From Asterias rubens (lineage: Eukaryota), in the NCBI RefSeq assembly GCF_902459465.1, contig NW_022985702.1:62001-126000 (forward strand): 64,000 nucleotides of DNA, given 5' to 3'. The position numbers and the translations under genes are program-made. The notes below the pieces were generated by a model that was given only the letters and a program-made list of their open reading frames with translations, ran no database searches and had not been told where the DNA came from. Of this stretch, positions 18,228 to 52,627 are shown one piece after another (position 1 is the first letter of the stretch; every line of letters begins with the position of its first letter).

Positions 18228-21200
18228 ATGGCCCACAATGGTAGAGCAAGAGGCCCTTATAAGCGATATCTTCAAGACGATACAAAAGAGGTTCCCAGTC
18301 GTAGTTGCAGCAGATTCAAACGTTACAAGAAATCTCGAGCACCACATACACAACGAATCGTCAACGCCGAACGCGAAGTCGACACATCCCTTCATGATCA
18401 TGCGAGCGAGACGGTCATTAATAACAGGTAGGTAAACCGGTCTGGGAGGAGGTATATCTGTATCTGGCTACATAAATATAGGCTACATATATTAAATCGC
18501 GGAGGCCATTTATGCCCCAAAATGAAAGAATATAACATCAAACTGCCACCTGCAATTTTAGTCTCATAGTAGTCACATTAATAATTTTCTCCTACAGTAC
18601 AACTACAAGCTACATTAACCCTCATAACAAAAAATCCTATACAGAAGAAGTGGGTAATGTCTATTTATATTATAAACAAATATATTTTAGTAAATTAGTA
18701 GTAAGTATTGGGAATTATTGAGGAAAACCTCAAAATTGCGTGTGCAATCTCAACACTGTCCCCACTGAGCAAATCCAAAAACTCAACAGTCTGTTTACTC
18801 ACTCAGTCTTGTCAGTCATTGTCACTCAGTCACTAAGTTAAAGATTACTGGTTAAGACAGTGATCATTTTCTTCTTTTCTTCAGAAGTGCCACAGAGTGT
18901 TTGCCAACAACGTCAAGTGAAATTAGACACCCTGCTTTAGTGCTTTCAGCATGTCCAGTTCCAGAACGGGTGAGTAATTTTTTTCTGTGTTTTATAATCC
19001 GTAACAGGTGCATTTGTGTGCACGTACATGTAACCAAAACTTTGTAGGGTGCGGACCGTGACCTTAATCCCACCGGCACCACCTAATAATGGTTGACGTT
19101 ATTAGCATTTTATCTTGCAACAACGGAGAGCAATCTCAAAATTGCGAGCACATTTTTCAATTGAACAATTATCCAAAGAATGCGCTCAACAGTTGCCAAG
19201 CGTAGCAATTGATGTATTTACAAGTGCTTGCAGTCTTCTGCTGTCAAGTATAAAAACTGTTTACACATACATAGGCCCTGATGTCTTGTGTTCTGGCTGC
19301 TTTGGTGGTCATCATGTTATATATCAATTAATCCATCAACCTATTTGTACGCTGATCAGTAGGTCACATCTAATTTCAAAAGGCAAATCGGACTCCCATC
19401 CATGAAAAATAAGTTATAAAAAAGTACATGTGCCAATATTTTTTTACTCTTGAAGATTACTGTATTCTGTCCCATTCTAATAAATTTTGACACTGGTGTG
19501 GTTTGACATCAATATTCATGATTCCTAACTAACTTTGCAAACATCACAAACAAATATTCACGAGCAAATATCATAAACATTTTGTTCTGTTGCATGCAGG
19601 TTCACAGCAACATTTATTCTTCTGATAATGGCGATGATCAATCAGAGCCTAATCACTCTGGCTCCGAAGATGGCGATGATCGACCACAGGCTCATCACTC
19701 GGACTCCGAAGATGGCGATGATCGACCAGAGGCTCATGACATGCAGGTACAGTTTACTGTTTTGTGTGCAGTCCCCTTAAACCTTTAGTTGAACAAAATT
19801 GACAAATCATTGGCATGCCATGTGCACAAAACTTGTTACCGTTTCTCACAGACTGGAAATTACATGTCTATATCTTTCCGCTGCATACATATATTGTAAA
19901 GGATTAGATTTTCTCGGTTAGAGCGGTTCACATGGTGTTACTAAAATCATTCATTTCTTATTTTGTACCTATAATAATGCCCTTCATCTGTCTTTTGTTG
20001 TTTACCTTTCCGCAGGGAGCACATGAGAAAGTTTCAGCTGGTTCAGCTCTGACAAAGTTTCAACTACTGATACTGCTTCTAAGCTTCGTCATCCGACACC
20101 ATCTGAGCGACAGTGGACTTGGTGACTTGTTGAAGATTTTAAACCTCATCCAACTAGACTGTGTCCCTAAAACTAAGTATCGGTTTTATGCGAACTTTAA
20201 GACAACCAAGGAAACAGTTGAAATGCACTTCTACTGCGATGATTGCCTTGCCTATATTGGCATGGACCCTCTAGTTTCCCACTGCCCAGATTGTAAATGT
20301 CCTTTTTCCAAAAGAGACAGTAAATGTAGGGGAAATTTTTTCTTGTATCTTCCGATAGCCCAACAACTTAAAGAACTGTTCGAAAATCCAGGCCTTGCAA
20401 ATTTAATCAGGACACCTGTTAATAATGGAAATATCAGGGATATCTCGGACGGACTAAGTTATCAAAAGCTAAAAGCAAACGGTGCATTTAATGACAGACA
20501 TAGCATATCATTGATGTGGAACTCGGACGGTGTCCCTTTATTTAAAAGCTCAAATTATTCACTAAACCCCATTCAATGTATAATTAATGAGGTTCCACCA
20601 AAAGAACGATCAAAAAATGTAATCCTTGCAGCTTTGTGGTTTGGCCCAAGAAAACCCAAAACAGAGACATTGTTTCGCCCTTTCGTTTTTGAAATGAACA
20701 AATTAAAGCGAGAGGGTGTGACATTTAAAATAGGTAATGAAACCTTCTGTTCAAAGGTGTGTGCACCACTTTGTTCTTGTGACTCTCCTGCTAGAGCACC
20801 GCTGCAAAACATCAAGCAGTTCAATGGGTTACATGGATGCAATTTTTGTTTACATCCTGGAGAAACGGTTGAAAGAGGCCATGGCAGATGTAGAGTTTAT
20901 CCATTAACAACTCCATTGCCTGAACACAGGACTGCCCAAAACATGAAAGTCCATGCAACCCAGTCAATTGAGCAAAGAGAATGTGTATTTGGTGTCAAAG
21001 GGCCCACGGTATTGTCTTGTTTACCAAGATTTGATATTTCGTGGGGATTTGTTCCAGAATACATGCATGCAGTTGCACTTGGTGTTGTGAGGTCATTTGT
21101 TTCGAAGTGGTTTGATTCAAGTTCACATAATACAGCATATTATCTTGGACGAAACGTTAATGAGGTTAACAAGCGACTTACTTCCATTAAACCGCCAAAT

Positions 21201-21275
21201 GAAGTGTCTAGACTTCCAAGATCTATGAAAGAGTCAACATTTTGGAAAGCTACTGAGTGGAAAAACTTCCTGGCT
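18228..21275 (+). pseudogene. Second CACTA/EnSpm-family transposase, spliced, 3'-truncated
   Basis: Exon 1 RGPYKRYLQD...VP; acidic repeat exon 19600-19746; main exon from 20016 with CxxC pairs, SLMWNSDGVPLFKSS, CDSPARAPLQNIKQFNGLHGCNFC, PEYMHAVALGV, WKATEWKNFL, then unrelated sequence. Confidence 0.88.
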
Positions 21276-21483
21276 GTATCACAGTAAAATTATACTAACC
21301 AAATACAGTTTTCACTTTAATTTTAATATAAGTATACTGTAGTTTTACTATATAATTAACATATTTTGTTTAATATAGTAAAACTACAGTAAGTGAAACT
21401 TCATTTGTACTTCAAATATTATAGGTTTACTTTGGATAGTACAATAAAACTATAGTAAAAATACAGTCGATTTTTATAAGGGA
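21276..21483. mobile_element. Candidate CMC-type terminal fragment (possible right end of the second CACTA-like element)
   Basis: AT-rich block with repeated actacagta/tactgtag motifs ending TTTTTATAAGGG; begins where the transposase breaks off; no matching left end found. Confidence 0.35.
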
Positions 21484-24823: not shown

Positions 24824-25352
24824 TATAGAGGTAACCAATCCAGCAAGCAATTTAAAATATCATGAATGAAAGAAAATGTTCATCAATGCAAAAGGGAAAC
24901 ATACCCGGTAATCTATTTTGGCTAGATGTAGGCAATTGTGTTTACCAAAAGTAAGATACCGAATTCCATTTATGACCCTTTATACCTGCACCAATGATGC
25001 TGTACTGCAGTGGTAGTTCTAATTCAGCTAGATGTAGCTGATTGAGACTGCCATGCTTATTTCAGCAGCTCTAGGCATAAGGATGTGTAGTTCATTGCAA
25101 TGTAGCGGTGTACTAGTTTGGTCAGGTGTGGCTGAATGAGTTTGCCAAAAGTACATGGAAAGAAATTGTTCTGCCGGATAATTTAGGTGTTGGACTAGTG
25201 AGGTTTCTATGAATGACAAGCTAGTTTGGCTAGATGTAGCTGAATGAGTGTGTCACCAAAGATAAGGACACCAATGTCAGTTAATTTGCAAAACCATTTC
25301 AGATTTTAATTAGGTCAGGTGCAAAAACAATAGTAGTTAAGATAGACTCTCT

Positions 25353-25600
25353 GGAACACTTTGACCTTTGCCCTAGAGGACAATGAGAGGTCAAACTGTA
25401 CCCCAAATAGGGTAGAAATATGGAACACTTTGCCCTTTGCCCTAGAGAACAATGAGAGGTCAAACTGTACCCCAAATAGGGTAGAAATATGGAACACTTT
25501 GCCCTTTGCCCTAGAGAACAATGAGAGGTCAAACTGTACCCAAAATAGGGTAGAAATATGGAACACTTTTAATTTGACCTTCCTTCAGAGAGGTCAAACT
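25353..25600. repeat. 69-bp tandem repeat, 3 full copies plus partial
   Basis: Units start at 25353, 25422, 25491 and 25560 (ggaacactttgccctttgccctagagaacaatgagaggtcaaactg...). Confidence 0.95.
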
Positions 25601-25689
25601 GTGCCCGAAATGGGTTAAAAACAGTTAAAATTTCTCGCTGTGGTGCAATGCATAGGTAGTGTGTGTGTGTGTGTGTGTATTGGTATAGC

Positions 25690-25945
25690 AGTTGACAGGG
25701 GAATCCCGGAACAAGGGGTCGCGTGTGGGAATGACGTTGCAGTATTACTGGTCAGTGGTGGTGGGGATAATCCCCGAACAAAGGTCGCGTGTGGGAATGA
25801 CGTTGCAGTATTACTGGATAGTTGACAGGGAAATCCCCGAACAAAGGTCGCGTGTGGGAATGATGTTGCAGTATTACTATTACTGGTCAGTGCTGGTAGG
25901 AAATATCCTCCGACAAAGAGGGCGTGTGAAAATGACGTTGCAGTT
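25690..25945 (+). promoter_or_regulatory. Four approximately 65-bp repeats, each with a kB-like site and a TGACGT (CRE/ATF) motif
   Basis: GGGGAATCCC 25698, GGGGATAATCCCC 25763, GGGAAATCCC 25828, degenerate GGAAATATCC 25899; TGACGT at 25732, 25798, 25933 (TGATGT at 25861); TATAAA at 25997. Confidence 0.6.
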
Positions 25946-26058
25946 TTGAGAGATATACAGAAAATATAAGTGTACATAATAAATATCCCAATGGTTTATA
26001 AATATTATGATCATTAAATGATCATAACATTATAACTTTGGTCAGTTGAACGGTCATC

Positions 26059-26484
26059 ATGTCTGCAGAAAAACATCATCGTTCGGATGCATCTTCAAGG
26101 GTTGAGCCACTGTGTGATGGGTTGCGTTATCTGCGTCAACAAAACCAAACGGAGGACGTTACTTATCCGCGACTAGTTCATTTATCTACACGACTAAATA
26201 AAAAACAGTTAGAACAGTTAACCTCAAAGCTGTTTGAAGAATTCGACGACCCAGAAATCTTTGAAAAGTCATTGGAAAAACTTGTTTTAGCACTTGGTTC
26301 TTCAAATGCCGACATATATAAACATAAAATAAACCATATGTATAATCCTTGGTCTATGTGTTTTGGCGCTTTATTACATTGGTATCAACGTAACTATGAA
26401 GAAGCCACGATTGAAAAGATGATATTGGCGTGTCAACGAAGTAATATGTTTTATAATGTATATGAATTTTTAATTCCAGCATAA
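26059..26484 (+). CDS. Intronless Death-domain-like protein (Polinton accessory gene)
   Basis: LEKLVLALGSSNADIYKHKINHMYNPWSMCFGALLHWYQRNYEEATIEKMILACQRS fits the DD pattern L..LG.S..DI......P.......L..W.......AT...L..A. The start context GTCATCATG is identical to that at 30916 and 31268. Confidence 0.7.
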   Translation: MSAEKHHRSDASSRVEPLCDGLRYLRQQNQTEDVTYPRLVHLSTRLNKKQLEQLTSKLFEEFDDPEIFEKSLEKLVLALGSSNADIYKHKINHMYNPWSMCFGALLHWYQRNYEEATIEKMILACQRSNMFYNVYEFLIPA

Positions 26485-26599: not shown

Positions 26600-27125
26600 T
26601 TGAATAGCCTATTATAGGATTATCCTGCCATGTAATTGTGAGTTTGGAATTAAGAGTATCAATATACGAGCCGGGGGATGTATTGACATGATAGGGGCGC
26701 CAATTTCAAAAGACTCATGTTAATGAATTCAATCGTTCCAAACTGTTAAACCTTTTGGGGGGACAAAGATGTTTTAACTTATATAAAATATAATGGATAA
26801 GATACAGAGCTTCATAAATATATTTAAGCGTGAAAAGATGGGTTATCTCATCGTATATATCGTTGAATAGTTTATTATAGGATTATCCTGCCATGTAATT
26901 GTGAGTTGGGAGTTAAGAGTATCGATATACGAGCCGGGGATGTATTGACATGATAGGGGCGCCAATTTCAAAAGACTCATGTTAATGAATACAATCGTTC
27001 CAAACTGTCAAACCTTTTTGGGTGACGAAGCTGTTTTATAACTTATATAATATATAATTGATAAGATACAGAGCTTCATAAATATATTTGAGCGTAAAAA
27101 GATGGGTGGTCTAATCGTAGCTATT
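26600..27125 (+). repeat. 263-bp tandem duplication (promoter-like, TATA plus start region)
   Basis: Near-identical blocks begin at 26600 and 26863 (ttgaatag..tattataggattatcctgccatgtaattgtgag...). Confidence 0.9.
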
Positions 27126-27400
27126 GTTTTGTTCGTACTTGTTACAATAGCCCTTTTAATAAATGCGATACAGATTGTTAGCTTACAAAATATAGGCGAA
27201 GGAACTGCTCTAATTGAGAAATTTAGAGATGTGACTTACGTAAAAATTAGGGATTACACCCAAGCAAAAAAGAAAGGCTTTCCATTGGTTCCTGGGCGAG
27301 GGATTAACCTCACTGTTGAGGAGTGGCAAAGTCTAAACTAAAGACAATGCTTCCCACCATAGACGAAGCCGTTGAAGAAGTTTCCGACGCTTGTATTGGT
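27102..27400 (+). pseudogene. PC4-family (transcriptional coactivator p15) ssDNA-binding domain with a hydrophobic N-terminal leader; frameshifted
   Basis: IEKFRDVTYVKIRDY...LVPGRGINLTVEEWQSL, then after a frameshift at about 27338 LKTMLPTIDEAVEE, matching the PC4 pattern F....YV.IR.Y....P...GI.LT.EQW..L. Confidence 0.8.
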
Positions 27401-27583
27401 TAACTAAAAACAAAGAACTAAGAAATGGTCACTTACATATCCAAAAGCGTGTGTTGTAATGTAAAAAACAAATGGATAAAAAGCCCACGACAAATCGTTT
27501 GGAGCCACAGATCTTCACAGCAAATCAGCAAACCAGCAAACCAGCAACATCAGTAGCAGTAAATTATAAACATCATCATCATC

Positions 27584-28690
27584 ATGGCTGAAAACAAATT
27601 TTTTCCTGATTCCTTCAACGCGGCGGAAGAATGGCGGAGGCTGTTAGGAGAAGACATGATGTGGGGACAAATTATCCCCCATTCCCTACCTCCACCACCT
27701 ACAAGTGTCTTCCAAGAGCAGGCAGAGTGTAAGTTTTATTTTATTTGTTTGCTTCCACTACTTAAATGTTCTTTTTAGAACAACCCCCTCCCCTTCCAAT
27801 ACACCTCTTTCTGAATGTGTTTGTTTTAATGTAAAAGACGTCACGCCTAAAAATTAAATTAAATAAATTTGTTTCTCTTTTGTTTTATTTTTAGTTACTC
27901 ATGTCATAGAATTTGAGATGGAGGAGGACACGGCCGGAGAAGGAGATGACGATGATTTGGAGGGGTATTCTTGGCAATGTGGTACGTTACGTTTTATTTT
28001 ATTTTTATATTTTTATTTATTTATTATTATTGTTTTTGTTTTTTTTTGCTGTTAAACTGTGATTAACTGATTGATCAGAAGATGTTCTCATATTAGCAAC
28101 ATTGCCGTTACATTGCTCAAGACCAAACCCAAACTTCAAGCTTGCAATCAAGTTTTCAACCATTCAACTTATTTATACCATTTCTTTTTGTGTGTTACTT
28201 GTATAGCGTCGGAAATTCTTTGCCCCGACGATGTGTTTGATGAACCCCTTCCTTCAGTGCCGTCACCCGTTCCAGTTGCTTTACCTGTTCCGTCACCCGT
28301 TTGTTTGCCTCCGATGTCACCATTAGCTCTCCCCACCGTACCAGCCACAATCGGCCAACATATGTACGGGCACGTAGGGTTCTACGTGCGCACAGTGTTA
28401 TGTTTTATTATCCAATCAAATTGTTATGGATGTGAGGTGGATCATCCATCTCAAAGGCAGCATAGCTGCCTGATGGATGATCCACAGGATCAATTTAACA
28501 TGTAAATGTATATTGAAGAAATGTTAGAAAAACTTCGCAAGGATAGCGATGTCCTTGTGTGTCACTGGCTTGAAAAAGTCAGTACTATTGACGCACTAAA
28601 CAAAGGTATCCTTGCGAAGATTCTGCGGTCGCAGAACTTATTGAATTTTTATTTTTTACATTAACTACGGAAGAGGGCATGGAAGAGTTA
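27584..28690 (+). CDS. Three-exon Polinton gene: acidic and Pro-rich protein with a CYGCEVDHPSQRQHSC motif; TAA at 28503-28505 may be premature
   Basis: Exons 27584-27728, 27895-27981 and 28207 onward, joined by canonical phase-1 GT-AG introns (gtaagt, ttttag; gtacgt, tgtatag) that keep one frame. The frame reopens for about 50 codons after the TAA. Confidence 0.7.
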
Positions 28691-29017
28691 AGAGATTATG
28701 TTGCTTGACATTTTTCCAAGTCCTCTTTTGTATTTAATAATTGTGTTTTATTTGACTGCATTTGTGTGTAAACTTTTTAAAACTGTACATACATGTTTGA
28801 TTAAAACATTTCCTTTGTAAAATTTTATTTTAAACTTTTTAAAATTAACAACTGTACATGACTGTACATAACTGTTTGATTGAAGTGAATAAAATCAAAA
28901 ACAATTTTTTTAACGTGAAATAATTTGATAAATAGTGTGTTATTATTAGTCGTTTGTAATAAATACTTGAACATAAAGGGGTGGATTCATTTTGACTTTG
29001 CAACTAAGAGAGTCAAC

Positions 29018-30105
29018 ATGGGGGAGATGAAAGATTGGGTCGATTACTTATACACTTTATATTATGACATTGAACATGAATCGGGGTTAAGTAGCGTTGA
29101 AAAGTTATATCAGAGAGTCAAAGCCGAGGGTGTGTACGAGTTGTCTCGGAAACAAATAGTTCAATACTTGGAAAAACAAGATACTTATACTTTGCATAAA
29201 CCAATAAAAAGAACTTTTCCTAGAAATCGTGTTCTCGCCATTGCAATTGATGAAATATGGCAACTTGATCTATGTGATGCTCAAGCGCTTTCAAGATATA
29301 ATAAGGGGTATAAATACATATTAACATGTATCGATGTGTTTTCCAAATTTGCTTGGGCAAGACCACTGAAAAATAAGAGGTAAAACGATCCTAAATGCCT
29401 TTAGATCCATTGTAAATAGTGGTCAAAAGAGGGCCCCTCTGAGAGTCCAAACGGACGAGGGTAAGGAGTTCTTGAATTCTCATGTGCAAGAATTCTTAAC
29501 TCATCACTAAATTGAATTTTACACTACAAATAACAAAACACAAAGCTAGCGTCATAGAGAGATTTAATTCTACCTTGAATACAAAACTTTGGAAATTATT
29601 TTCATATCAAAATACCTTCAAGTACAAAGATGTGTTGCAAAAAGTGATCAATACGTATAATAATTCGACACATAGATCGATACGTATGAAACCCAACGAA
29701 GTGTCTGAAGAAAATGACGGGAAAGTGTGGAAGGCGTTGTATAGTGATGCCAGACATGCAGCCAAACCTAAATATAAGTTTAAGATCGGAGACTCGGTTA
29801 GGATTAGCATAGCGGCAAAAGTATTTCGAAAAGGATATTTACCCAAATGGTCCGAGGAAATATTCACCATCGATCGACGTATACGAAATGTAAGACCATT
29901 ATATGTTTTGAAAGATTATGGAGGCGAGGAGCTGAAGTGTACCTTTTACGAGGAGGAATTACAGAAAGTTTTAAAAGATACGTTTGATACGTACAGAGTG
30001 GAAAAAGTTTTTCGTCAGAGAACAAAACTTGGCCAAAAGGAATATTTTGTAAAGTGGTTGGGATATCCCTCTTCGTTCAACAGTTTGGTAACTAAACTCG
30101 AATAA
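29018..30105 (+). pseudogene. int: Polinton retroviral-like (rve) integrase with C-terminal chromodomain; frameshifts and a stop
   Basis: YTLHKPIKRTF, WQLDLCD, ILTCIDVFSKFAW, QTDEGKEF, ASVIERFNSTL, YNNSTHRSIRMKP, KGYLPKWSEEIF, EYFVKWLGYPSSFNS. Confidence 0.95.
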
Positions 30106-30154
30106 TAACGGGGATCCGACATGCCTGCAGGCAGAAACTACTCAAACTCGAAAC

Positions 30155-30910
30155 ATGTCGGACCGTCAATTCTATTTGACCCTTCCTAGCAATGCCTCTC
30201 TGGATGTGTATCCGAACAATACACTATCGGATTACACGACCAGACTATTTAATCCTATTCAACTAACTGGTAATTGGGAGGTCGGTCTGAGCGAAATTCA
30301 ATATCCTCATTGTTATTTTAACATAACGGATGGAAATAATTCGCTGACCTACTCTGAAAATGGTAAACTGACAAGATATTTAAAAATACCACATGGCTAC
30401 TACAGTTCTATTCAAGAGCTTCTCGAAACCATCAATGAACTTATGGTTGACGAAGCCAAGCCGAGTATAAGTTTGACGGTAGACAGAAAATCTAAAAAAG
30501 TTTTAGTGAGATTGAAACCGGGTGCTTACGTAATATTTAACGATGGATTATACAATTCACTAGGATTGCCTCGCAAAACACTCTTTGAAACGACAATAGG
30601 AACTCGACCTTCTGACATTTATTCTGGAATTTATAGTTTGTACATATATAGTGATATCATAGAACCTCAATATGTAGGCGATTCTAACGTTCCCTTGATA
30701 AAAATAGTACCGCTAAAGACAGGTAATAAAACCATGGGGGAAATGATATCCACGTCTTACAGTATGCCTCATTATATACCAGTTAAAACAAAGAACTTTG
30801 ACACGATAAATTTGACTATAAGAAACAATGCTGGATTCAAATTTTCATTCGAACGAGGTAAAGTCATCGTGAAACTACACTTTCGTCAGGTCCGCCCTCC
30901 CCTTTTTTAG
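30155..30910 (+). CDS. Polinton minor capsid (penton) protein; ORF intact
   Basis: FYLTLPSNAS...NT.SDY.T.L..PI.L.GNWEVGLSEIQYP and YIYSDIIEPQYVGDS.VPLIKIVP; position after the integrase. Confidence 0.88.
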   Translation: MSDRQFYLTLPSNASLDVYPNNTLSDYTTRLFNPIQLTGNWEVGLSEIQYPHCYFNITDGNNSLTYSENGKLTRYLKIPHGYYSSIQELLETINELMVDEAKPSISLTVDRKSKKVLVRLKPGAYVIFNDGLYNSLGLPRKTLFETTIGTRPSDIYSGIYSLYIYSDIIEPQYVGDSNVPLIKIVPLKTGNKTMGEMISTSYSMPHYIPVKTKNFDTINLTIRNNAGFKFSFERGKVIVKLHFRQVRPPLF

Positions 30911-30915
30911 TCATC

Positions 30916-31260
30916 ATGTCACTCTACGAACAGTATTATAAAGCTCAGGCGGGAGGTGGAAACTACTTCAAAGGAGCACCGATGCAAAGGGGTTATGGTT
31001 TAGGTGGAATTCTCTCCGGGTTATTCCGTCAGCTCTCCCCATCCTGACATGGGGAGCTAAGACAATTGGGAAACAAGCTCTCCAGACTGGTCTGCAAATG
31101 GCTAATGATGCACTTAAGGGTTAAACTACCCCCATCGCTCGTCAACCGAAGAAAAAACTAACCCATGGAGTACGCAAGAAGGTTATAAAGAGAAAGGGTC
31201 GAGGTCGACCCACCATTTCATCCGCTAGGAAGCGTCCACTCGATATATTTGATGTTAAAT
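30916..31260 (+). pseudogene. Small Gly-rich/basic virion core-like protein; frameshifted
   Basis: MSLYEQYYKAQAGGGNYFKGAPMQRGYGLGGILSGLF followed by a basic tail; lies between minor and major capsid genes. Confidence 0.75.
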
Positions 31261-31267
31261 CGTCATC

Positions 31268-32590
31268 ATGGCTTTTGCTCATAAGAATTCCTCAGAATGT
31301 ACCAAGTCAGAGCTGGACCTCTTTTCTTTGCCCGGTACGCAGGCTAGTTTGACCAGGGCCAGTTGGATACAGTTTCAACCTCTGACAAATATCGTGGACG
31401 CTGGTCCGATTGAATTTGTAATAAATGGATCCAGCGATACTTACTTGGACTTGGCGCAGACCATGCTTCACGTACAGGCTAAAATCGTGGGTGCTGATTG
31501 AGCGGCACTAGACGATGACGTACCTGTGGCCCCCGTAAATCTAATGTTACAGTCTCTATTTTCCGAAGTCGACGTGTCCTTAAATGATCGTGTAATAACG
31601 CCATCAACTAACACGTACCAATACCGATCTGTCTTCGAATCGTTTTTCAGTTATGGGCCAGCCGCTAAGTCGTCTCACCTCACGTCGGGATTATTCTATA
31701 AAGATTCAGCCGGGAAAATGGATGTTACTGATCCCACGATCGAAGATGTAGACAATCGCAATGAAGGATTACATCAAAGGTTTCTACACACAAAGGGGAG
31801 CAAACTGGTGGACCTGATAGGACCTATACACGCCGACATATTTTTTGTTATTAAACGGTGTTTCCATGAAAATAAAATTGCACCGTTCGAAGGATTCTTT
31901 CTGTCTCATGTCTTCTACACCCGATGCAGATTACAAAGTAAAGATTCAGAGCGCTACCTTGTACATTCGAAGAGTCAGCGTGAATCCCACGGTAGCTTTA
32001 GCCCAGGCAAACACATTGGAGCAAACAACTGCAAAATATCCATTATGCAGAGTGGAGTTAAAAACATTCTCCGTTCCGCAAGGCAATCAATCTTTTACGA
32101 GGGAAAGGATGTTTCTGGGTCAGACTCCCAAACGCATTGTTTTAGGTTGTGTTGAAAATACGGCTATAAATGGGGATTTTAAGAAAAACCCATACAATTT
32201 CAAACATTTTAATTTAAACTTTTTAGCGCTGTATATAGACGGGGAACAACTGCCTTGGAAACCACTCAAACCAAAATTTGTGGGACCCGACAGTAATTAT
32301 CTCATGGCATATCAGACGTTATTTTCGGGTCTAAACAATCTTCATCAGAATTCTGGAAACGATATTTCTAGATCGGATTACGCTAACGGTTACACCCTCT
32401 ATGCATTTGACTTGACTCCAGATCTGTGTTCCGGCGGTCATTTTAATCTAATACGAAGCGGTAATGTACGCTTGGAGCTCGCCTTTAGAGATCCATTGAT
32501 TAACACCGTGAATGTACTCGTTTATGCGGAGTCAATTCGATTCCAGAAATAGACAAGTCCCGTAACATACTGATTGATTATTCATTCTGA
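31268..32590 (+). pseudogene. Polinton major capsid (double jelly-roll) protein; stop and frameshifts
   Basis: ECTKSELDLFSLP.TQ, GPIEFVI.G, YLDL..T.LHV, NLMLQSLFSEVDVSLN, PKRIVLG.V.N.A.NGDFKKNPYNFKHF, GYTLYAFDLTPD, G.VRLELAF. Spread over three ORF-track pieces. Confidence 0.93.
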
Positions 32591-33093
32591 AAACTGACAA
32601 AATAACCAGACAACACAATGGTGGCGTTTTTCCCATAGATAAGTTACCCGAAAAAATTTCCAGCTTTCCTATTCTATATGTCATAAATACAGACAAAAGT
32701 GATAAACCGGGGATGCATTGGGTCGCTTTATATTTTAATGAAGACAAAAGGGCAGAATTTTTCGATTCATACGGTAACCCACTAGACAAATACGATGCGC
32801 ATTTAATGCGGTTTATTGATAGACATTCCTCGGGGGTCTTATACAATGACCGCTGTCTTCAGTCTCTGGACAGTACAGTCTGCGGTCAGTATTGTATCAT
32901 GTTTGCTCAATACAGGTGTAGGAACGTTGCAATGCAGACTATTGTTCGCATGCTCACTAGGGATACCCGTTATAATGATGCGTTTGTACATAACTTTGTG
33001 GAATCCCTCTACAACGTTGCTCTACCAATATCACATGGTGATTTTATTATTAATCAAATTGTGAAAAGTTTTCAAAGTATTGTAAATAAATAG
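32590..33093 (+). pseudogene. Adenain-like cysteine protease; start codon apparently lost
   Basis: GVFPIDKLP, VINTDKSDKPGMHWVALY (His), AEFFDSYG (Asp), LQSLDSTVCGQYC (Gln, Cys). Confidence 0.92.
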
Positions 33094-33372: not shown

Positions 33373-34131
33373 TTACAAAGACTCCCAAAGTAACTGTTTT
33401 TTAGGTCTGTGTCTAGAATAGGCCCGTGTGACTCTCTTTCGATTAGCTTTTGAAGTTGCGGTAGGCAACACGGGTAGTACCCTTTTTTCATTCGGTGTCA
33501 TCAAGTTTTGCTTGTGACGTTGGACTATGGTTCGGCGTGACACATTACCCACTAGCGTTTCGGGCACGTTCATACTCGCCAAACCACGTACAAATTGTTG
33601 CCATCCAAGAGGGTCAAATCCTTTTGTAGCGTGTAAAACATCATTGATTAAATCCGTAATGTTAGATCCCTTAACCACATCTTCACCAATTTTTAGCTCG
33701 CCCATATCGTTCCAATTCATGGCGTCATTCTTTTTAATTTTTTCTAATAATAGTTGGGCTTTATGCTTGTACGTCTTGGGCACACCCTCAATGATTTCTG
33801 CGGCAGTGTCAGGTTGATTTACAGGGGTTACCGTATTTGTTTTGGTGACATCTTCGGTCATGTCATAATATCCTTTCGGATTACTCATAGTCACTGATAT
33901 GGGTTCTTGTTTTCTGGCTCGATCAAACTGTAGGTAGCGTTGGAGCGCTTGTTGATACAAAAGTACCTTGGTGTTGTCATCCAGGTCGGTTCTGTCCAGA
34001 GTATCCTTCATGTCCCGTTCCAGCGATTGTACTTTTGTTTCTCCAATGTCACTTTTCAAAAGTACATTTTGAATGGCACGTGTGACTTGATCCGCGGTAG
34101 CGTTCATCTCAATCTTCTTGGCGTAACGCAT
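33373..34131 (-). CDS. Conserved Polinton core gene (PW/PZ class)
   Basis: KVLLYQQALQRYL, MNWNDMGEL, KGSNITDLIND, PLGWQQFVRGL..MNVP..LVGN. ATG overlaps the upstream stop (TGATG at 34133-34129). Confidence 0.8.
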   Translation of the reverse strand: MRYAKKIEMNATADQVTRAIQNVLLKSDIGETKVQSLERDMKDTLDRTDLDDNTKVLLYQQALQRYLQFDRARKQEPISVTMSNPKGYYDMTEDVTKTNTVTPVNQPDTAAEIIEGVPKTYKHKAQLLLEKIKKNDAMNWNDMGELKIGEDVVKGSNITDLINDVLHATKGFDPLGWQQFVRGLASMNVPETLVGNVSRRTIVQRHKQNLMTPNEKRVLPVLPTATSKANRKRVTRAYSRHRPKKQLLWESL

Positions 34132-34461
34132 CAGTTTCCTAGGAACAGACCACCTAATGCTCTTAAGATGGGTGCAATGAGCGAACCAAAAAAAGCCACC
34201 TTTTTGCACGAGTAGATGTTTTCGTTTCTTGTGTGACAGTCGTTTATTAGCCAATTGTCTCAGGTGTGTCTTGTGACGTGATAACTTCTTCCTATGAGCA
34301 GAAGTCAAATGTACATGGCCTTTTAATACGTTCAAAGCACATTCGCACAGATATGATATCAGTTCTTTGTCGGCTCCTTTTATAATATCTTTCCTTATTT
34401 TGGGTGAAGACTTGCCCAATAGTTTTAGAGTATGGGCATTGTTCCCGAGTCGATGCGTCAT
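34131..34461 (-). CDS. Small basic Polinton core protein ending in a QKGGF motif (PW/PZ class); 1-nt homopolymer frameshift
   Basis: ADKELISYLCECALNVLKGHV.L...KKLSRHK..LR.L...LLVQKGGF. Removing one T from the T7 run at about 34188-34194 restores FFGSLIAPILRALGGLFLGN-stop. Confidence 0.8.
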
Positions 34462-34499
34462 CTTGACAAAATGAAGACAAAGGCATTTGTACGGGTCTA

Positions 34500-34794
34500 T
34501 TATACTTTGGGTATATAGGCGTAGGGCGTCTCTCCCTTGAATATTTTTGTGTCGTGGGTCGAGGTGATCGGACCAATCGTCCGGCAACCCCTCCACAAAT
34601 TGTATACCAGGTACACTATCAGAAAATTTTTGGAAAAGCGGCTGAAATTCTCCATAACGCCACAAAATTCTCTCAGGTGTATCAAGAATAACATCATTTT
34701 TCTGTTCCAATAACTTTTTTACAAAGACTGTTTTCCCACTGGAACTTGGTCCGGCAATGATGCAAGTAAATGGATGTTGCAGTTTAGTCGACAT
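34500..34794 (-). pseudogene. A32/FtsK-like packaging ATPase with a large internal deletion
   Basis: LQHPFTCIIAGPSSSGKT (Walker A), ILWRYGEFQPLF, FVEGLP, then directly, in another frame, the C-terminal TKIFKGETPYAYIPKV-stop; Walker B region absent. Confidence 0.88.
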
Positions 34795-35044
34795 GAGATC
34801 GTCTGAAGTTAAAAATAATAATACAGAGTATAAAAATAGCACTGAAAAAAAAAGCTTTGCGATTGGTTATTCGAGCGATGTACTGTTCACAAGAAAAAGA
34901 GTCAATAAATCCTTTACATGTTCTTCTCGAACCATAGTCTTTCCAAATAAAACGGATGCAATACGTAATCAGCAAAATAATAATTAAAATCAGTTTAAGC
35001 ATACGTGTTTTATCCCGTGTGCTTGTATTTGACGTTGCATCCAT
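34784..35044 (-). CDS. 86-aa protein with two predicted transmembrane segments (Polinton accessory)
   Basis: Hydrophobic runs LKLILIIILLITYCIRFIW and AFFFSAIFILCIIIFNF; fills the gap between the polB stop and the ATPase start, overlapping the latter. Confidence 0.5.
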   Translation of the reverse strand: MDATSNTSTRDKTRMLKLILIIILLITYCIRFIWKDYGSRRTCKGFIDSFSCEQYIARITNRKAFFFSAIFILCIIIFNFRRSHVD

Positions 35045-35057
35045 GATGTTTAGAAGC

Positions 35058-35985
35058 TCAATGAGTGGTTGACGTGGGTGTGCCAGCTTTATAACCGTAG
35101 GGTACGGTGTTGTACTGATCTACTCTAACCCTCTTGCTATAGACGACGCGGTAATCTTTTGTGCTTGACTTGGTCAGTATTTCTTTAGTTTTACTGTTCC
35201 TTACTATTTTATGAGGGTCTGATATCATAATTTTATGAGGGCCTACACCTTTTACCATGTCGACCACTGAATCAAAATTAATCTGTTGTGAATTTCTAAA
35301 GTTTAGGGTAAAGCCCCGCACTTTACAGCAGGTTTTTCCAGTGTCTAATCGATACGGGTAGTTCTTGGGCCCCCCCCCCCGACACAAATGTCTCTATATA
35401 ATTTCCATCTTTTGGGTTTAACTCATTCGTCAAATCGCCCAGATAATCACCCTCTGGAGGATTGTACTGTCCCGGTTTGGTTACGTATAAGACACTGTCT
35501 GTATCGTAATACAATACGGACTCTTGCAATTGTTCGAGTAGTTCGTAGAGCTTGAGTCTAGCATGGGCAGTAGTAAAAGCTGCAATAACCACATCTGTTT
35601 TGGCGTTTGGTTCAACAAACTCTTCTTCGGCTTCGTATCGAACTTCAGCAATTTCGTGATTAATGAAATTTATGTCATGTACAATCTTATCATCTGCCAA
35701 TAGAATGTCATTCAGTTTGGCTGGATCACTTATCACTTCGACTTTTGGCATGTTAATTCTCTGACCAAATTTTCCCCAGAAACTATTTAGCATCAGTTTG
35801 GCAAGGGCTCTCAGGCCTGGATTCTTTGTAATTTTGGATGCATCTAAATGTATCCCTTCGTGTTCATAATAGTCATTTAGATATTGTGTCTTGTCTTGTT
35901 CGCTGACGACCCATGATGGCCACCCAGAAGCTTCAACTTTAAGCTTAAGAAAAGTGTTAATATACTCCGTGAATAAACCACCCGT
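35058..35985 (-). pseudogene. polB: Protein-primed family B DNA polymerase, C-terminal part
   Basis: GGLFTEYINTFLKLKVEASGWP, GLRALAKLMLNSFWGKFGQ, AAFTTAHARLKLY, VLYYDTDSV, YLGDLTNEL, KVRGFTLN, VPYGY; one frameshift near 35370. Confidence 0.95.
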
Positions 35986-36908
35986 GTCTACTTCACTCTA
36001 CTTACCGGTAGAGTCGAATTACTAATTTGCATATTCCCTATGCCGTGAGGCAGAAATTCTAAGACTTTTACACACAGTAGCGCCCTCCACCGTCCTACCC
36101 ATAACGCCCCGCGACATGCCCGTCACGGAGTCGTCCTCTTTTCTCTTAGCCGCGAGTGGGTGAGGTTGTGTTTTAAATCTGTTCCAACAGTTCATAAGAA
36201 AACCGTTGTCTAAACCTTATCCTCGCTAAGAGTGCTATAAAAAGACTAGAAAGATTGTAGAGTTTTAGTTGTTGTGTTGTAGTGAGTTGTGAAATAAACT
36301 ATAGTTTGATTTCGTTGAGAAAATAATGAGTAGCGTAAAGAAACTGGGGAGGGCTTCGACTGTCAGTACTGGGGTTACGTCCGTTTCCCTGGGACAGTCG
36401 GAGCTCTCGGGGGACTGCGCCGGCGACACTACGTCGCCCGGCTTGCAGTCCTCCAGCCAGCCTACGCAGCCTCTGTCGGCAGAGGCTGTGTCGGCCGGAA
36501 GACCCACCGATCAAAGAGGTTGCTTACCGCTCCCCCTCCTCGGTCAGTGTGCGTGGGTCGACCCAGTCGAAGGTCAAGCGCCCCGGCAAGGCCAAGAAAG
36601 CCGGTGCCGGGGCAACGACCAAGAGAGGTAGGGCGAAAGGTGGCTCTGGTCCGGAGCGCACCGCCCACTCTCCCAGCACCGCCTCCGCACGGCTCAGAAT
36701 ACCCAGCCCGCAACGACACCGTGGATTCCCCCACGACGGTTGGTGACGGCCTTTTGCGAGGGTTGAAGACCCACAAGGCACCCGCCCACGCCATAGGCTG
36801 TGGGGTGCTAGCCATGAGGAGAAGGATTATGGGTGCGGAGTCGGGTACCTGGGACGCCCCCAGGATACCCCACTCACAGGGCCCGCCCTCGTCTTCGAAT
36901 TTCATCCG

Positions 36909-38991
36909 TTGCTCGGGCATCCCTGTCACTGGTTTTCGTGCGCCCGCCCGCCCCCCGGTATCGTGGGGCGTGGCGGAAGTGACCTCCCGGTCTCCAGGCG
37001 ACCTCCCGCCGACGGACCCGTGGGAGGTCGCCTTCAGGAATTTTTGGGGTCCTGGGCTCAGATCACGTCCGACAGATGGGTCCTCGAGACAATCGAGTGT
37101 GGCTACGCACTCGATTTCACGAGAACCCCCCCGTCGGACATGCTGATACGGCCAACGCCCACCCCGTCCGACCCTCTCAAGCGCCAGGCCCTCGAAGGGG
37201 AGATCAGTTCCCTTCTCCTCAAACGGGCAATACGCCTTGTCCCCGACCAGGGGACACGGATGGGGTTCATGTCCACTTTCTTCTTAGTTCCCAAGAAGGA
37301 GGCGGACACTTGGCGACCGATCCTGAATTTAAAGCCCCTAAACCGATTTATCCTCCCAAAGCGCTTCCGCATGGAAACGCTGCGGGCAATCCTCGAATCA
37401 ATCGATACACCTGCATGGGGGGCGAGCTTGGACATTCGGGACGCTTACCTCCACGTCCCCATCAGGTCCGAACACTGCAAATTTCTGCGCTTCCTTTACA
37501 ACAGAATGCTATACGAATTTGTGGTACTCCCCTTCGGACTGTCAACCTCCCCTCGAGTTTTTACCCGAGTGGGACGGGCGATCGGAGCAGCACTTTGGAG
37601 ACGAGGACTGCTGATTTTCCAATACCTCGACGATTGGCTGATTGTGGGCCGATCACGGGAGGCAACGGACGCGGCGCTGACACTTACGTGGCGCCTCACG
37701 TCCAGCCTGGGGTTCCTCATCAACATCGAGAAATCGCACCCGATCCCCTCTCAGGTGCCCACCTTTCTCGGTGCGGCTCTCGACTTTCAGAGGGGGCTAG
37801 CCCGCCCTTTGGCGGAATGGGTACAGAACCTTCGGCAGTGCATGGCTCTTTTCCTGGGGGCTACGGTGGCACCGGCGGTAGCCTGGCTCAAGTTACTTGG
37901 TCTCATGGCCAGCATGGTAGACCTAGTAGATTTCTGCAGGCTGAGGATGAGACCTATCCAGCTCCATCTCCTCGCCTACTTTCGGCCCAGCCGTCATTCG
38001 GTCAACCTCCCGGTGCCTACCACGCCTTGGCTGACCCCCCACCTTCAATGGTGGGTGGAGGACGCCAACCTCACATGTGGTCGAGTGTTCCGCCCGCCCC
38101 GACCGTCAGCGACTCATCACCGATGCGTCTCTGTACGGCTGGGGGGCGACCCTCGACCCCCATCAGATAGCGGGGGTGTGGGGCCCGGAACACCACTCGA
38201 CCCACATCAACGTCCTGGAAATGCTGGCGGTCCAGAATGCCCTCCAGCACTTCCGGGCACAGTTAGTGGGGCAGGCCGTCCTGGTGCACTTCGACAACGC
38301 TACAGTGGTAGCGTATATCAATCACCAGGGGGGCACCCGGTCGGCCCGACTGTGTGCACTAGCCTGGGACCTAATCCACTGGTGCATACGGCAGGGGATC
38401 GCCCTGTCGGCGTTGTACATCCCAGGGAAGGAGAATGTCACGGCCGACGCTCTCTCCCGGGGCTGGATCGTCCCGACAGAGTAGTCCCTCCGCCCCTGTG
38501 TGGCCCAGTCGCTCTTCCTGCTTATCGACCGACCTCACGTAGATCTGTTCGCCTCTCGGACGAACAATCAGCTACCGATCTACTGCGCCAGGGGTACCGA
38601 CCCCGGGGCATGGCGGATTGACGCTCTGACTATGCGATGGGAGGGGCTGTTGGCATACGCCTACCCGCCCATCTCCCTCATTCCACGGGTGCTGACAAAG
38701 ATCGAGCAGGATCATTGCAAAGTTCTCTTGATCGCCCCCTTTTGGCCCCTACAGCCCTGGTTCCCTCGGCTGGTCAGGCTCCTGGTGCACAGGCCGGTGG
38801 TTCTCCCACAACGCCCGGACCTCATATACCAGCTCGGGTCCGGAGTGGTTCATCCGACTCCGAGGGACCTGCACCTGACGTGCTGGGTGCTGTCACAAGA
38901 TCCCTCAGAGCAGCGGGCCTTTCGAGACGGGCTGCGGAAATTGCCGCCCAGTCCCGAAGGGCCTCGACTGCCGACTTCGCCATTTCTTTAA
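36909..38991 (+). pseudogene. DIRS RT - RNase H - DAM-like methyltransferase ORF; frameshift and stop
   Basis: FLVPKK...WRPILNLKPLN, LDIRDAYLHVPI, LPFGLSTSPRVFT, QYLDDWL; TDASLYGWGA, HINVLEM, DNATVVAYINHQGGTRS, NVTADALSR; VDLFAS..N, YAYPP, LIAPFWP.QPWFP. Frameshift at about 38100, TAG at 38482-38484. Confidence 0.95.
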
Positions 38992-39960
38992 ATGGTGTAG
39001 GCGGCGAGCTATTCGTCCCACCGATACTTCTGTAGAGGAGGTCGGGGATTTCCTCCTATATCTTTTTGATAGCGGACTGGCAACGGCCACAGTGAAAAAT
39101 TACCGGTCGGCCATTGCAGCAGTCCACGGAGGATTCGCCGACGGCTCGACAGTCTCGGATAACCGGGCGATTGGGCAGCTGACTAAGGGGATGTTTGTCA
39201 CCCGTCCCCCTGTGCGCAAATTGGTCCCATCCTGGGACCTCTTTAGCGTGCTGTCGGCACTAACAAAACCCCCGTTCGAACCACTGAGTGGGGCCACGTT
39301 GCTACATCTAACGGTCAAAGTGGCCTTTTTGGTGGCGGTCACTACGTCTCGCCGACGTAGCGAGCTCCACTCCCTTACAGTGGCGGCGGGGCACATCCGG
39401 TGGGAACCCGGAGGGGTCCGCCTAATCCCTACGCCAGGGTTTTTAGCCAAGAACCAGTCCGGTTCTTTCGAACCTCCAGATATTTTTGTTCCCGACCTTT
39501 AAACCTTTTCGGCGGTCACAGAGGACAAACTTTGGTGCCCGGTATGGGCGCTAAAGTGGTACATCGATCGTACGAAGTCACTCCGAACCGGCCACGAACA
39601 GCTGTTCGTGTCCACGGTTCCACCATTCCGACCGGCATCCCGCGATACAATCGCGCGTTGGATAGTTACAGCCATCCGCTCGGTGCCGGGCGGATGGCCA
39701 GCGACCGATGGTCCAGTTCATGCCCACGAGGTACGGGGGGTGTCGGCCTCATGGGCTTTCTTTAAAGGGGTCTCCATGAGTGACATAACAAGGGCGGCCT
39801 CCTGGAAGAGCCCGTCCACGTTCTCTGACTGCTACCTGAAGGTCGTTCTACAGGTGGATGGGAGAGCGGGTAGAGCGGTGTTGCAGGCGGCCAGCTGCAA
39901 AGCCAGAACAAGCTCCACCTCGTCAGTCTCGTGTTTAGGTGAGTTTTTTTCCACGGTAAT
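38900..39960 (+). pseudogene. DIRS tyrosine recombinase
   Basis: TVKNYRSAI, TSRRRSELHSL (R), FLAKNQ (K), HAHEVRGVSASWA (HxxR), AASWKSPSTFSDCY (W, Y); TAA at 39500-39502 and a short N-terminal deletion relative to the copy at about 53600. Confidence 0.93.
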
Positions 39961-40093
39961 ATAGTGCTAACAATACTTATAATGTTTTGCTCACCCGTGG
40001 GACGACACCCCCTTGGGCGCGCCGGGGTCCTACGCCCCCCATAAGACATGCAGTAGCACCGCGTATACCCACCGCCTTTCCTCGGTGCGAGTC

Positions 40094-40198
40094 TATGCAA
40101 ATTAGTAATTCGACTCTACCGGTAAGTAGAGTGAAGTAGACTCCCCCCCCCACAGTAGTGTGGATGGGGTCTACGAACGAATACTTACCGGTAGAGTA
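40094..40198 (+). repeat. DIRS internal complementary region (ICR)
   Basis: Reverse complement of the left terminus (...gtgaagtagac) joined directly to the reverse complement of the right terminus (tccccc...cacagtagtgtggatgggg). Confidence 0.9.
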
Positions 40199-40440
40199 TC
40201 CCTCCCTCCTTCCCCACATACTCGGTCCTTGGGTGCTTACATTTAGTAGGGCTCATCGAAAAGAGGACGACTCCGTGACGGGCATGTCGCGGGGCGTTAT
40301 GGGTAGGACGGTGGAGGGCGCTATTGTGTGTAAAAGTCTTAGCATTTCTGCCTCGCGGCATAGGGAATATGCAAATTAGTAATTCGACTCTACCGGTAAG
40401 TATTCGTTCGTAGACCCCATCCACACTACTGTGGGGGGGA

Positions 40441-42810
40441 TTTGGTCTCCCTATCGTACTGTTCACTATGCTCAAAATGCCACACAACTTCAATATCGAT
40501 CACTCTATACCCCAATTCAATAGCCTTTTCGAGTTCTATAGACACCCACGTACCGTGCTAAGCCCTTTCATCATCAGTATGTGTACACAAAGTCTGCTGC
40601 AGAGTGTCTACGCAGCTTCGGCACAAAGGAAATGTCAATTTGCCCCCCGATCGATAGGGTAACAAGGGATGGATTAATTTGGGGGGTGCGACTACTTGGC
40701 ATTTGATGAGACCGTAGTAGTCTGAGACATTTTTGAGTTATGATTTCGGGATGGTACAGTGGATAAGAACAATACTTATTTATGAATGGATATAACGAAC
40801 AAAAGTCTAAATACCTGATTACGTCATCCCCCTTTGTTTTATGAAACAAACAAGACGTGTTCGTACGCCCGCCGTAGAATCCGTGCCTGGGATTTAACGT
40901 TGCGCGGGGTCCAGTAATTGATTTGTGCTGGAGGGTAACTTTTATGTCTTCGGGTAAGTTTTTGACAATGGCTTTCCACTCACATTCCCACATCTCGACA
41001 AACTTTGTACATGTTGATTCCAAGAAAGTTTTCCTTTCTAGGGTGCGCGTGTCTAACTCTGACATGGGCGTCATCATTGTATTATTGATTGTCTTCTTAT
41101 TTGGATAACACTTGACGCACCCGTGAAAGTAGCATCCATTGAAAGAATATATTGTTTGACTTTCAGCATCATATTCGTCCACCTTATATTTGCCAGTCTG
41201 TTTTTCTCCTTTATTTCTCGCGTGTTGGATATATTTACCCTCCGTCAAGTGAACGTAATGTAACCATTGCAAAGCGACTTTTGATTGTTGTTCCTTGCAC
41301 TCGTACCCAGTAGGAGGTAAGACCGCAATGGTGTCGGCACTCAGGAAATTTCTCCTGTACACCAGATTACACGCAGAGGCTATTGTAATACAATTCTGAA
41401 AGGGATCGATACCTTCGTCATTCTCCCCCTGGGAGGATACTTTCTTAAATAGGGTTCGAAACTGCAAACAACAGCGACGAAGAATTTGTACGTCACTGAT
41501 ACAACAGTTCATCTTGTAACACAAAATGTTTTCCCTTTTCTCCCTCGTACCATTCATAAAATTGTTGTCTCTTTTCTGGGCTCATACTGTCGGGGGTGTA
41601 GTACTTGGCATCCGGAAAGGGACCTTCGTACTCTTGGTTTTGTTTTGTATTCCATAAGTGAGGGAAAAACCCTTTGTGTAATTCTTTGTAACCGAATGTT
41701 TGAGGCAGTTTACTTAAAGCCATGGGTAAAAAGTTGATAGAATCAACAATTTTGCGCTTGATAGACTGTATCTTACACCCCGTGTAAATAACATCGGGTA
41801 TGATAGCATTGTCGTACAGGAAACTGAGCAAAAAATACCCATCGTACGCTTTTAAATTATGCGCCAGAGCGATAGAATTATCCGTCTCTTTAGAACTGAA
41901 TAACCAATCGCAGAACTCTTCCTTACATTTCTCACCTTTAAATATCTTCTGACGAGACTCTGAACAATGTTTACATGATTTATACAGCGGGTCATCTTCT
42001 GATTTATCCTCACACAATTCACACACAACATGTGCAACGCATAAGTTTGGTTCGTGAACGCCGTTATCTTCAGTGCACTCAAAGTCAAAGAATACATATT
42101 TTGCTACGTCCTTCTCCTTCTTTGGCCCTGTACCGTCCCCATTACCAACTCGACCATCGGTATCGATCTGTTTACTTCCCGTACCAGTGATAGGCTTGAC
42201 AAAGCATTCGTGATCGACAAACCCCATCTCTTTACATACGGTACAGTATCTTTTGGTGCAGTCGTGCGTGCCATGTTTACCCTCGAGTTCATTGTTTACG
42301 TACCAGTCGCAGCGTTTACATCTGTAATATAACTTACATATTGTTTTACCTTTGATCTTCTTAGTCTTATGATTATTAAAACACTTCTGGTCCTTAAAAT
42401 TACGATTACATTCCGTACAGTGTACCCAAGTGATTATCTCACCCGATTTACAGCCGGGAGAAAAACACATTCTACAATCATCTACGCATCGCTTTTGTCT
42501 GTCTTGAGAATCAAAACCCCTTTGAGACGTGTCACAAAAATAACCCCTGTTTAAAAAGCCCTTCATTGACGTGATCAAATCGTAATGGTTATTGTAAAAA
42601 TACAGATAGATCGTTTGCCGTTGTACTGGCCCCTGAAAATAGAAGCGTTAAAACGATCGCTGGATAAAACCACCAATCGATACTCGGTCAGGACGTCTTG
42701 AAATTTCTGTATTTCTTCCAGACCCGCAAGGCCCTTCTTTTACACCGCTTTTGCGTGTAAATCCCTAGCAAGGTATTCTTGCTCTTTTCGACCCATTTTT
42801 ATCTGTTTTA
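40441..42810 (-). pseudogene. polB: Protein-primed PolB, N-terminal Cys-rich, exonuclease and palm-A part; several frameshifts
   Basis: HYDLITSMKGFLNRGYFC, VFFDFECT (ExoI), HNLKAYDGYF (ExoII), KGFFPHLWN, ITIASAC, FNGCYFHGC, FYGGRT, YLDFCSLYPFINKY. Confidence 0.93.
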
Positions 42811-52400: not shown

Positions 52401-52627
52401 ACAGAAGTGTGGATGGGGTCTACGAACGAATACTTACCGCTAGAGTATCCCTCCCTCCTTCCCCACATACTCGGTTCTTGGGTGCTTACATTTTGGTAGG
52501 GCTCATAGAAAAGAGGACGACTTCGTGGCAAGCATGTCATGGAGCATTGTGGGTAGGACAGTGGAGGGCGCTATTGTGTGTAAAGTCTTAGCAATATTGC
52601 CTGGTGGCATAGGAAATATGCAAATTA
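49444..52627 (+). mobile_element. Second DIRS copy of the same family: left ITR, gag remnants, RT fragment, ICR, truncated right ITR
   Basis: Starts gtctacttcactctacttaccggtagag as at 35986; FHYFDDWL-type RT remnant at about 51890; ICR at about 52334-52445; right ITR breaks at about 52627. Confidence 0.85.

Follow-up and report, generated by a model that had tools for sequence, protein, structure and literature searches.

A death-domain gene behind a kB-bearing terminal inverted repeat in a Polinton of the sea star Asterias rubens

A death-domain gene and the element that carries it

The window, a stretch of 64,000 nucleotides from the sea star Asterias rubens (contig NW_022985702.1, positions 62,001 to 126,000, forward strand), contains a Polinton copy that begins with AGTAGT at position 25332, and the first gene inside its left terminal inverted repeat (TIR) is an intronless open reading frame (ORF) for a death-domain protein (Table 1). 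An earlier note on this DNA, made from its letters alone, had described four repeats of about 65 bp, two exact matches to the NF-kB consensus, a TATAAA box and an open, intronless frame of 141 amino acids. All of these are present, and the observation of a death-domain gene behind a kB-bearing TIR is confirmed.

The encoded protein starts with about 36 residues of low predicted confidence, followed by a six-helix death domain (residues ~46-140) in which an insertion of about 10 amino acids separates helices 1 and 2. Its predicted structure reaches a pLDDT (predicted local distance difference test) of 85-93 over residues 41-140, and the top rows of the fold search are death domains, with vFLIP structures also among the matches. 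Structure and fold matches thus support the fold read earlier from the ORF, with Pfam Death matched below its cut-off (E=0.012). The type of domain first suggested was not recovered: RAIDD/CRADD is the best match by sequence and by fold, the tree concurs, and a domain of the Toll/MyD88, FADD or IMD type was rejected; the ORF groups with CRADD domains. Membership in the RAIDD clade is therefore very probable, with Patiria and Acanthaster providing the nearest named relatives. Compared with CRADD/RAIDD itself (PDB 2O71, 2OF5; XP_038061424.1, host gene), the ORF has the same clade, fold, helix-3 patch and C-terminal YEFL end, but it has neither a CARD nor an intron, and it carries the helix 1-2 insertion and the marks H89 and C101-F102. 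Identity to the host and Patiria domains is 34-35%, the ORF has no DNA-level match to the host adaptor exon, and neither the window nor a full-length sister element at G000:C15:13632995-13647679 (the C15 copy) contains a match to the host CARD exon. The product is a CARD-less derivative of RAIDD/CRADD, not a CRADD. Six further stand-alone lineages of this protein, at 39-51% identity and known from protein records without DNA context, have the two family marks in common. All seven lineages have Y/F and K/R at the positions equivalent to RAIDD Y146 and R147, leaving the helix-3 patch intact, and the window copy has Leu where 24 of 26 aligned sequences have Trp.

That the gene is borne by the element is nearly certain. 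Its start context, GTCATCATG, occurs five times in the window against 0.53 expected, three of them at start codons of the element (26053, 30910 and 31262), the death-domain gene thus sharing it with two genes of the core module, which bears out the earlier argument from this context. Intact copies of the gene lie at three separate sites, in the window, on C15 and on C3, and always behind the TIR. Apart from one in-frame codon, they are separated by 6 synonymous and 5 non-synonymous substitutions, for a ratio of non-synonymous to synonymous rates (dN/dS) of 0.21-0.29 (p 0.011-0.039), similar to the 0.23-0.32 of the polymerase gene PolB, and the protein is likely under selection.

The C15 copy is 14.7 kb long, with both TIRs, (AGT)2 ends and a 6-bp duplication; its core genes are broken too. 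Window positions 25326-25875 match its right end in reverse (91.5% over 553 nt), and its left and right TIRs align over 534-536 nt, for a TIR length of ~535 bp. The window copy keeps the left end alone and stops at ~42650 without a right TIR. Among eight other copies, three show a flawless duplication of 6 bp at the target site, one has unlike flanks, and four were left unscored, the terminal pattern not being found. Of the core genes, PolB (PF03175, three pieces, split in the window by an insertion at ~35986-40440), the chromodomain and the adenain-type protease (PF00770) score above the Pfam cut-off, and the integrase (rve, E=0.003, frame split) and the A32-type ATPase (PF04665, E=0.001) below it. 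No Pfam capsid family scores above cut-off in the element's frames, and the likely major and minor capsid genes were labeled from gene order. The gene order used is that of PMC8097293, which also describes accessory regions flanking the core of vertebrate Mavericks. With Polintons/Mavericks (adintoviruses) the sea-star element shares two inward-facing core modules, (AGT)2 ends, a TIR, a 6-bp duplication and an accessory region beside the core, and it differs in its RAIDD-type cargo, whereas the cargo already reported for adintoviruses includes Bcl2, IAP and gasdermin-domain homologues (PMC8502044). Our literature search found no Polinton or Maverick report with death-domain cargo or a kB-bearing TIR, and the searched parts of PMC11131425 and 10.64898/2026.10.13.758929 mention no death-domain cargo.

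Table 1 Features of the Polinton copy in the window
Feature	Position	Strand	Remark
Probable left half of target-site duplication	25326..25331	+	6 bp before element end; partner not found, copy without right end
Left TIR, starts AGTAGT	25332..25875	+	Reverse match to right end of C15 copy
Outer array, 3.2 x 69 bp, AACAAT word per unit	25352..25569	+	DR1-type direct repeats at 25362, 25431, 25500
Inner array, 3.7 x ~65 bp (63-72-bp units), A-B-A-B order	25689..25945	+	Last unit just inside TIR boundary
kB consensus site 1	25698..25707	.	One base short of perfect 11-mer
13-bp near-palindrome GGGGATAATCCCC, unit 2	25763..25775	.	kB-like, spacing outside consensus
kB consensus site 2	25828..25838	.	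Fits GGGRNWYYCC
TATA box (TATAAA at 25997) and predicted start region/5' leader	25997..26058	+	Partly kept in sister promoter
Intronless 141-aa death-domain ORF	26059..26484	+	RAIDD/CRADD-type, without CARD
Accessory frames (PC4-like; Cys-motif ORF), partly broken	27051..28505	+	Pfam PC4 E=1.2e-6
Integrase+chromodomain (two frames), likely minor capsid, small basic ORF, likely major capsid (two frames), adenain-type protease	28919..33093	+	
Protein-primed PolB (broken), A32-type ATPase and neighbors	33373..42647	-	

Host-factor motifs of the terminal inverted repeat

Units of the inner array combine a kB-type site, a CSL-type TGTGGGAA and a ATGACGTTG core. Of the kB-like site and the TGACGT-type motif that the earlier note saw paired in each unit, TGACGT stands in three of the four units (25732, 25798 and 25933), unit 3 reads TGATGT, and the kB site of unit 4 has decayed. 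The CSL/Su(H)-type word is likewise found in three of four units, and a second, palindromic GGGG...CCCC variant of the kB site sits in the B units. The DR1-type direct repeats of the outer array are of the nuclear-receptor kind. The repeats of the inner array are no private enhancer of the death-domain gene: they make up the inner stretch of the TIR, and at the right end of the C15 copy they also face the PolB frame. That end contains three of the 69-bp units and, besides these, one perfect kB 11-mer, the variant of 13 bp, two words of CSL type and three TGACGTTG cores, with no TATAAA within 900 nt.

A consensus kB site lies upstream of the start codon in all 29 TIR-linked loci, and the perfect 11-mer, GGGGAATCCCC, is present in 28 of them. 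This 11-mer is the major histocompatibility complex (MHC) kB site on the opposite strand (PMC9991059), and about 30 of the 240 perfect kB 11-mers in the 418-Mb genome fall in these TIRs. The host encodes a p50-like NF-kB and Rel, and consensus kB sites stand ahead of a TATA promoter, a feature of NF-kB-responsive viral enhancers. Chance was estimated from 20,000 shuffles of a repeat-collapsed 280-nt TIR, with motifs picked post hoc and the four inner units, as tandem copies of one ancestor, counted as about one event. On this basis the perfect 11-mer has a chance of 0.0001, the DR1-type word 0.0017, the consensus kB 10-mer 0.026, the CSL word 0.068 and TGACGT 0.092. Counted across all of the window, matches to the kB consensus show no enrichment (11 on both strands vs 6.1 expected; 8 of 100 shuffles reach 11).

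A sister promoter with an overall identity of 68% served for comparison. Retained between the two are TATAAATATTAT, the 30 nt before the ATG (leader) and ATGACGTTG (at -126/-128), and in both the unit beside the TATA box has lost its kB consensus. This footprint argues for a working promoter, with the ATF/CREB half-site rather than kB as its most constant part. The cytomegalovirus (CMV) major immediate-early enhancer and the human immunodeficiency virus (HIV) long terminal repeat are NF-kB- and CRE (cAMP response element)-bearing viral control regions. With these and the adenovirus terminal region the sea-star array, a putative control region, shares tandem host-factor units before a TATA box at a genome end; it differs in lying in the inverted repeat of an integrating element with a gene at each end and in having a CRE half-site. 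A second, unrelated Polinton family (G000:C15:7296119-7312912; 457-bp TIR, arms 99.8% identical) has, at one end, a tandem array of eight 66-bp TGACGT units that precedes a TATA box and, close to the opposite end, two full CREs. From the sequences of the two families, tandem host-factor arrays look like a shared Polinton design, with kB particular to the family of the window.

A candidate death-domain decoy and its alternatives

We propose, at roughly even chances, that the CARD-less death domain of this Polinton, derived from the host RAIDD/CRADD adaptor, acts as a dominant-negative decoy, likely transcribed from the TATA box by way of the host-factor sites in the TIR. Because the domain is of RAIDD/CRADD type, it probably targets the CARD-DD adaptor pathway of the host, not Toll/MyD88, FADD or IMD signaling. 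The host has a CARD-DD (CRADD-like) adaptor gene (G000:C2:7722084-7723260) and a PIDD1-like gene (G000:C7:4006943-4013900) whose product combines LRR-ZU5-ZU5-UPA with the two HFS autoproteolysis motifs and a pair of death-like domains; sea urchins, amphioxus and Owenia have relatives of it. RAIDD links a death-domain platform to a CARD caspase, with helix 3 central to assembly and helix-3 peptides blocking it (PMC4977500). Given these helix-3 results and the loss of the CARD, we lean towards a protein that inhibits the host adaptor pathway. Via its conserved helix-3 patch, the death domain would dock on whichever death-domain protein partners the host adaptor (PIDD1-like or RIPK-like); the CARD-less copy would occupy the platform and recruit no CARD caspase, and a cell holding linear, protein-capped element DNA or integrase cuts would thus survive. 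Viral death-fold-only inhibitors, namely vFLIP/MC159 with tandem death effector domains (DEDs), poxviral pyrin-domain (PYD)-only proteins and iridoviral CARD-only proteins, also keep the interaction domain of a host adaptor while the effector-recruiting part is absent. The sea-star ORF differs from them in belonging to the DD subfamily, not DED, PYD or CARD, and would inhibit by analogy. No virus-borne RAIDD was among the matches listed, and in a BFVD structure search with the death domain none of 413 matches reached E 0.001.

The regulatory step of this proposal is the weaker one. The TIR may act as a compact viral enhancer in which ATF/CREB half-sites are constant and kB, CSL and nuclear-receptor sites tune the output, and NF-kB, as one input, may be repressive in resting cells and activating in stressed ones. 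Judged from the motifs, binding of the TIR kB site in vivo has slightly the better of the odds, and immune induction of the death-domain gene is rather unlikely. A fully immune-gated Polinton, in which TIR NF-kB sites would switch on PolB (right) and the decoy (left) together, so that infection or DNA damage would set off replication in a cell kept alive by the decoy, is more doubtful still.

Several observations weigh against the decoy and its NF-kB input. The host gene on C7 is called PIDD1-like solely for its architecture and two HFS motifs, its terminal domain has no sequence match to the PIDD death domain, and PIDD is possibly vertebrate-specific (PMC11463336). Echinoderms are reported in the same source to lack caspase-2 and to have a duplicated caspase-9, and with caspase-2 lost the mammalian PIDDosome model is not transferable. 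The tree comprises 96 columns and leaves 20 of 46 inner branches open. The selection test called for in the earlier note gave its signal across the three intact copies, but not for the window-C15 pair alone (p 0.055-0.12), and 13 of the about 14 sites of a derivative family are without an intact gene. On the regulatory side, a homodimer of p52 that sits tightly on the MHC-kB site does not activate it (PMC9991059), and the kB site may therefore silence the element as much as wake it. ATGACGTTG, not kB, is the best-conserved TIR motif, persisting nearest the TATA box where kB decays, and the second Polinton family has no death-domain gene and no kB sites at its ends.

Some of these points would suit an alternative in which the TIR arrays, adenovirus-like, serve generally as an enhancer or help the replication origin and are read mainly by ATF/CREB-type factors, with kB incidental or repressive and expression of the gene unlinked to immunity. 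The presence of ATGACGTTG in every type of unit as well as the sister promoter, the kB-free TGACGT array and CREs of the second family, and the lack of window-wide kB enrichment all fit it, as does the adenovirus 5 inverted-terminal-repeat-plus-packaging region, a strong constitutive element (10.1101/2025.07.20.665756). It accounts less well for a perfect 11-mer in 28 of 29 copies, at its low chance in the collapsed TIR, or for kB variants in the window that stay within the consensus and the palindromic variant of the B units, and we consider it possible but unlikely. The domain might instead be an activator that seeds death-domain assemblies, either for an NF-kB feed-forward onto its own TIR or for late killing to release particles. 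The helix-3 patch is intact rather than altered, kB sites lie directly upstream of the gene, and in mammals PIDD1 also enters a complex with RIPK1 and NEMO that activates NF-kB (PMC9162469). The element, however, encodes no CARD or other effector part, and the other death-related cargo reported for Polintons is anti-apoptotic or regulatory, making this reading improbable.

Two further explanations concern a gene without function and a gene kept by the host. In favor of a captured host exon carried as a functionless passenger, few changes underlie the dN/dS, most TIR-bearing elements hold only a truncated remnant, and the 26 remnants in the non-autonomous derivative, without helix 1 and everything past helix 2, show no constraint (2 synonymous and 11 non-synonymous changes in the 5' part). 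The Leu of the window copy at the Trp position points the same way. At 35% identity and without a DNA match to the host exon, however, the gene still has an open frame, its own TATA box and an element-type start context, and six more lineages bear the family marks; a passenger is thus very improbable. Host co-option of the window copy, which the earlier note had allowed, draws on an open frame beside broken integrase, major capsid and polymerase genes. Such openness needs no co-option, because at the core-gene indel rate an indel-free 426-nt frame between two copies is expected with probability 0.40. The gene also travels with the TIR to three unrelated sites at a dN/dS like that of PolB, and co-option has next to no likelihood.

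If true, no virus-borne homologue of RAIDD would precede this decoy, which would come from an old family found across several Polinton lineages of echinoderms and add a new class to the anti-death cargo of Polintons. It could serve to identify partners of the echinoderm CRADD-like adaptor, and a CARD-less RAIDD kept under selection in animals reported to lack caspase-2 would mean that this adaptor probably restricts DNA viruses or transposons. As to what wakes Polintons, a concrete trigger open to testing comes with this family, since nearly every TIR has a perfect kB site and both terminal genes lie downstream of it; about 30 such perfect sites would have been spread through the host genome by the non-autonomous derivatives. 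If neither trigger nor decoy holds, the gene is one more captured cell-death gene in a cargo-collecting class.

Derivatives and neighboring elements

The non-autonomous family that shares the TIR comprises about 14 elements of 10-19 kb, on C12, C15, C5, C59, C17, C7, C3, C2 and C137, and none of 11 proteins, core and accessory, from the family of the window matches it. Its members have inverted arms of 2.2 to >5 kb with a truncated death-domain remnant per arm, and the C2 copy is almost wholly palindromic. The element at G000:C3:14526913-14537982 is chimeric, joining a window-type TIR and whole death-domain gene, as a left arm that ends one base past the death-domain stop codon, to a body of the non-autonomous family.

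Directly 3' of the death-domain gene, a 262-bp tandem duplication (91% identical, window 26600-27128) is present in both the window and C15 copies, and ~870 bp of the C15 copy are missing from the window copy at 27210. The adjoining PC4-like/Cys-motif module (window 27211-28840) also occurs as tandem solo copies without the TIR pattern at G000:C8:11765895-11769471 and 17008336-17015842. Deep contigs from runs X1 and X4 cover this module and begin or end at window 27265, 27550 and 28840, the same positions at which the module copies at C8:11.77 Mb do, and run X3 has a GT..AG joint at 27728-27895 within it. The module is possibly a transcribed, host-kept fragment.

In the second Polinton family, PolB has an apparently spliced start, and a reverse-transcriptase-like element is inserted. 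Within the window, two GC-rich elements that are related to each other occupy 35986-40440 and 49444-52627. Both have inverted repeats at their termini and complementary repeats inside, a DIRS-like structure, and the first of them is the one that interrupts the Polinton PolB. Outside the Polinton, two long transposase-like ORFs lie at 10869-12623 (-) and 19932-21287 (+), with weak DUF4218 and DUF1258 matches.
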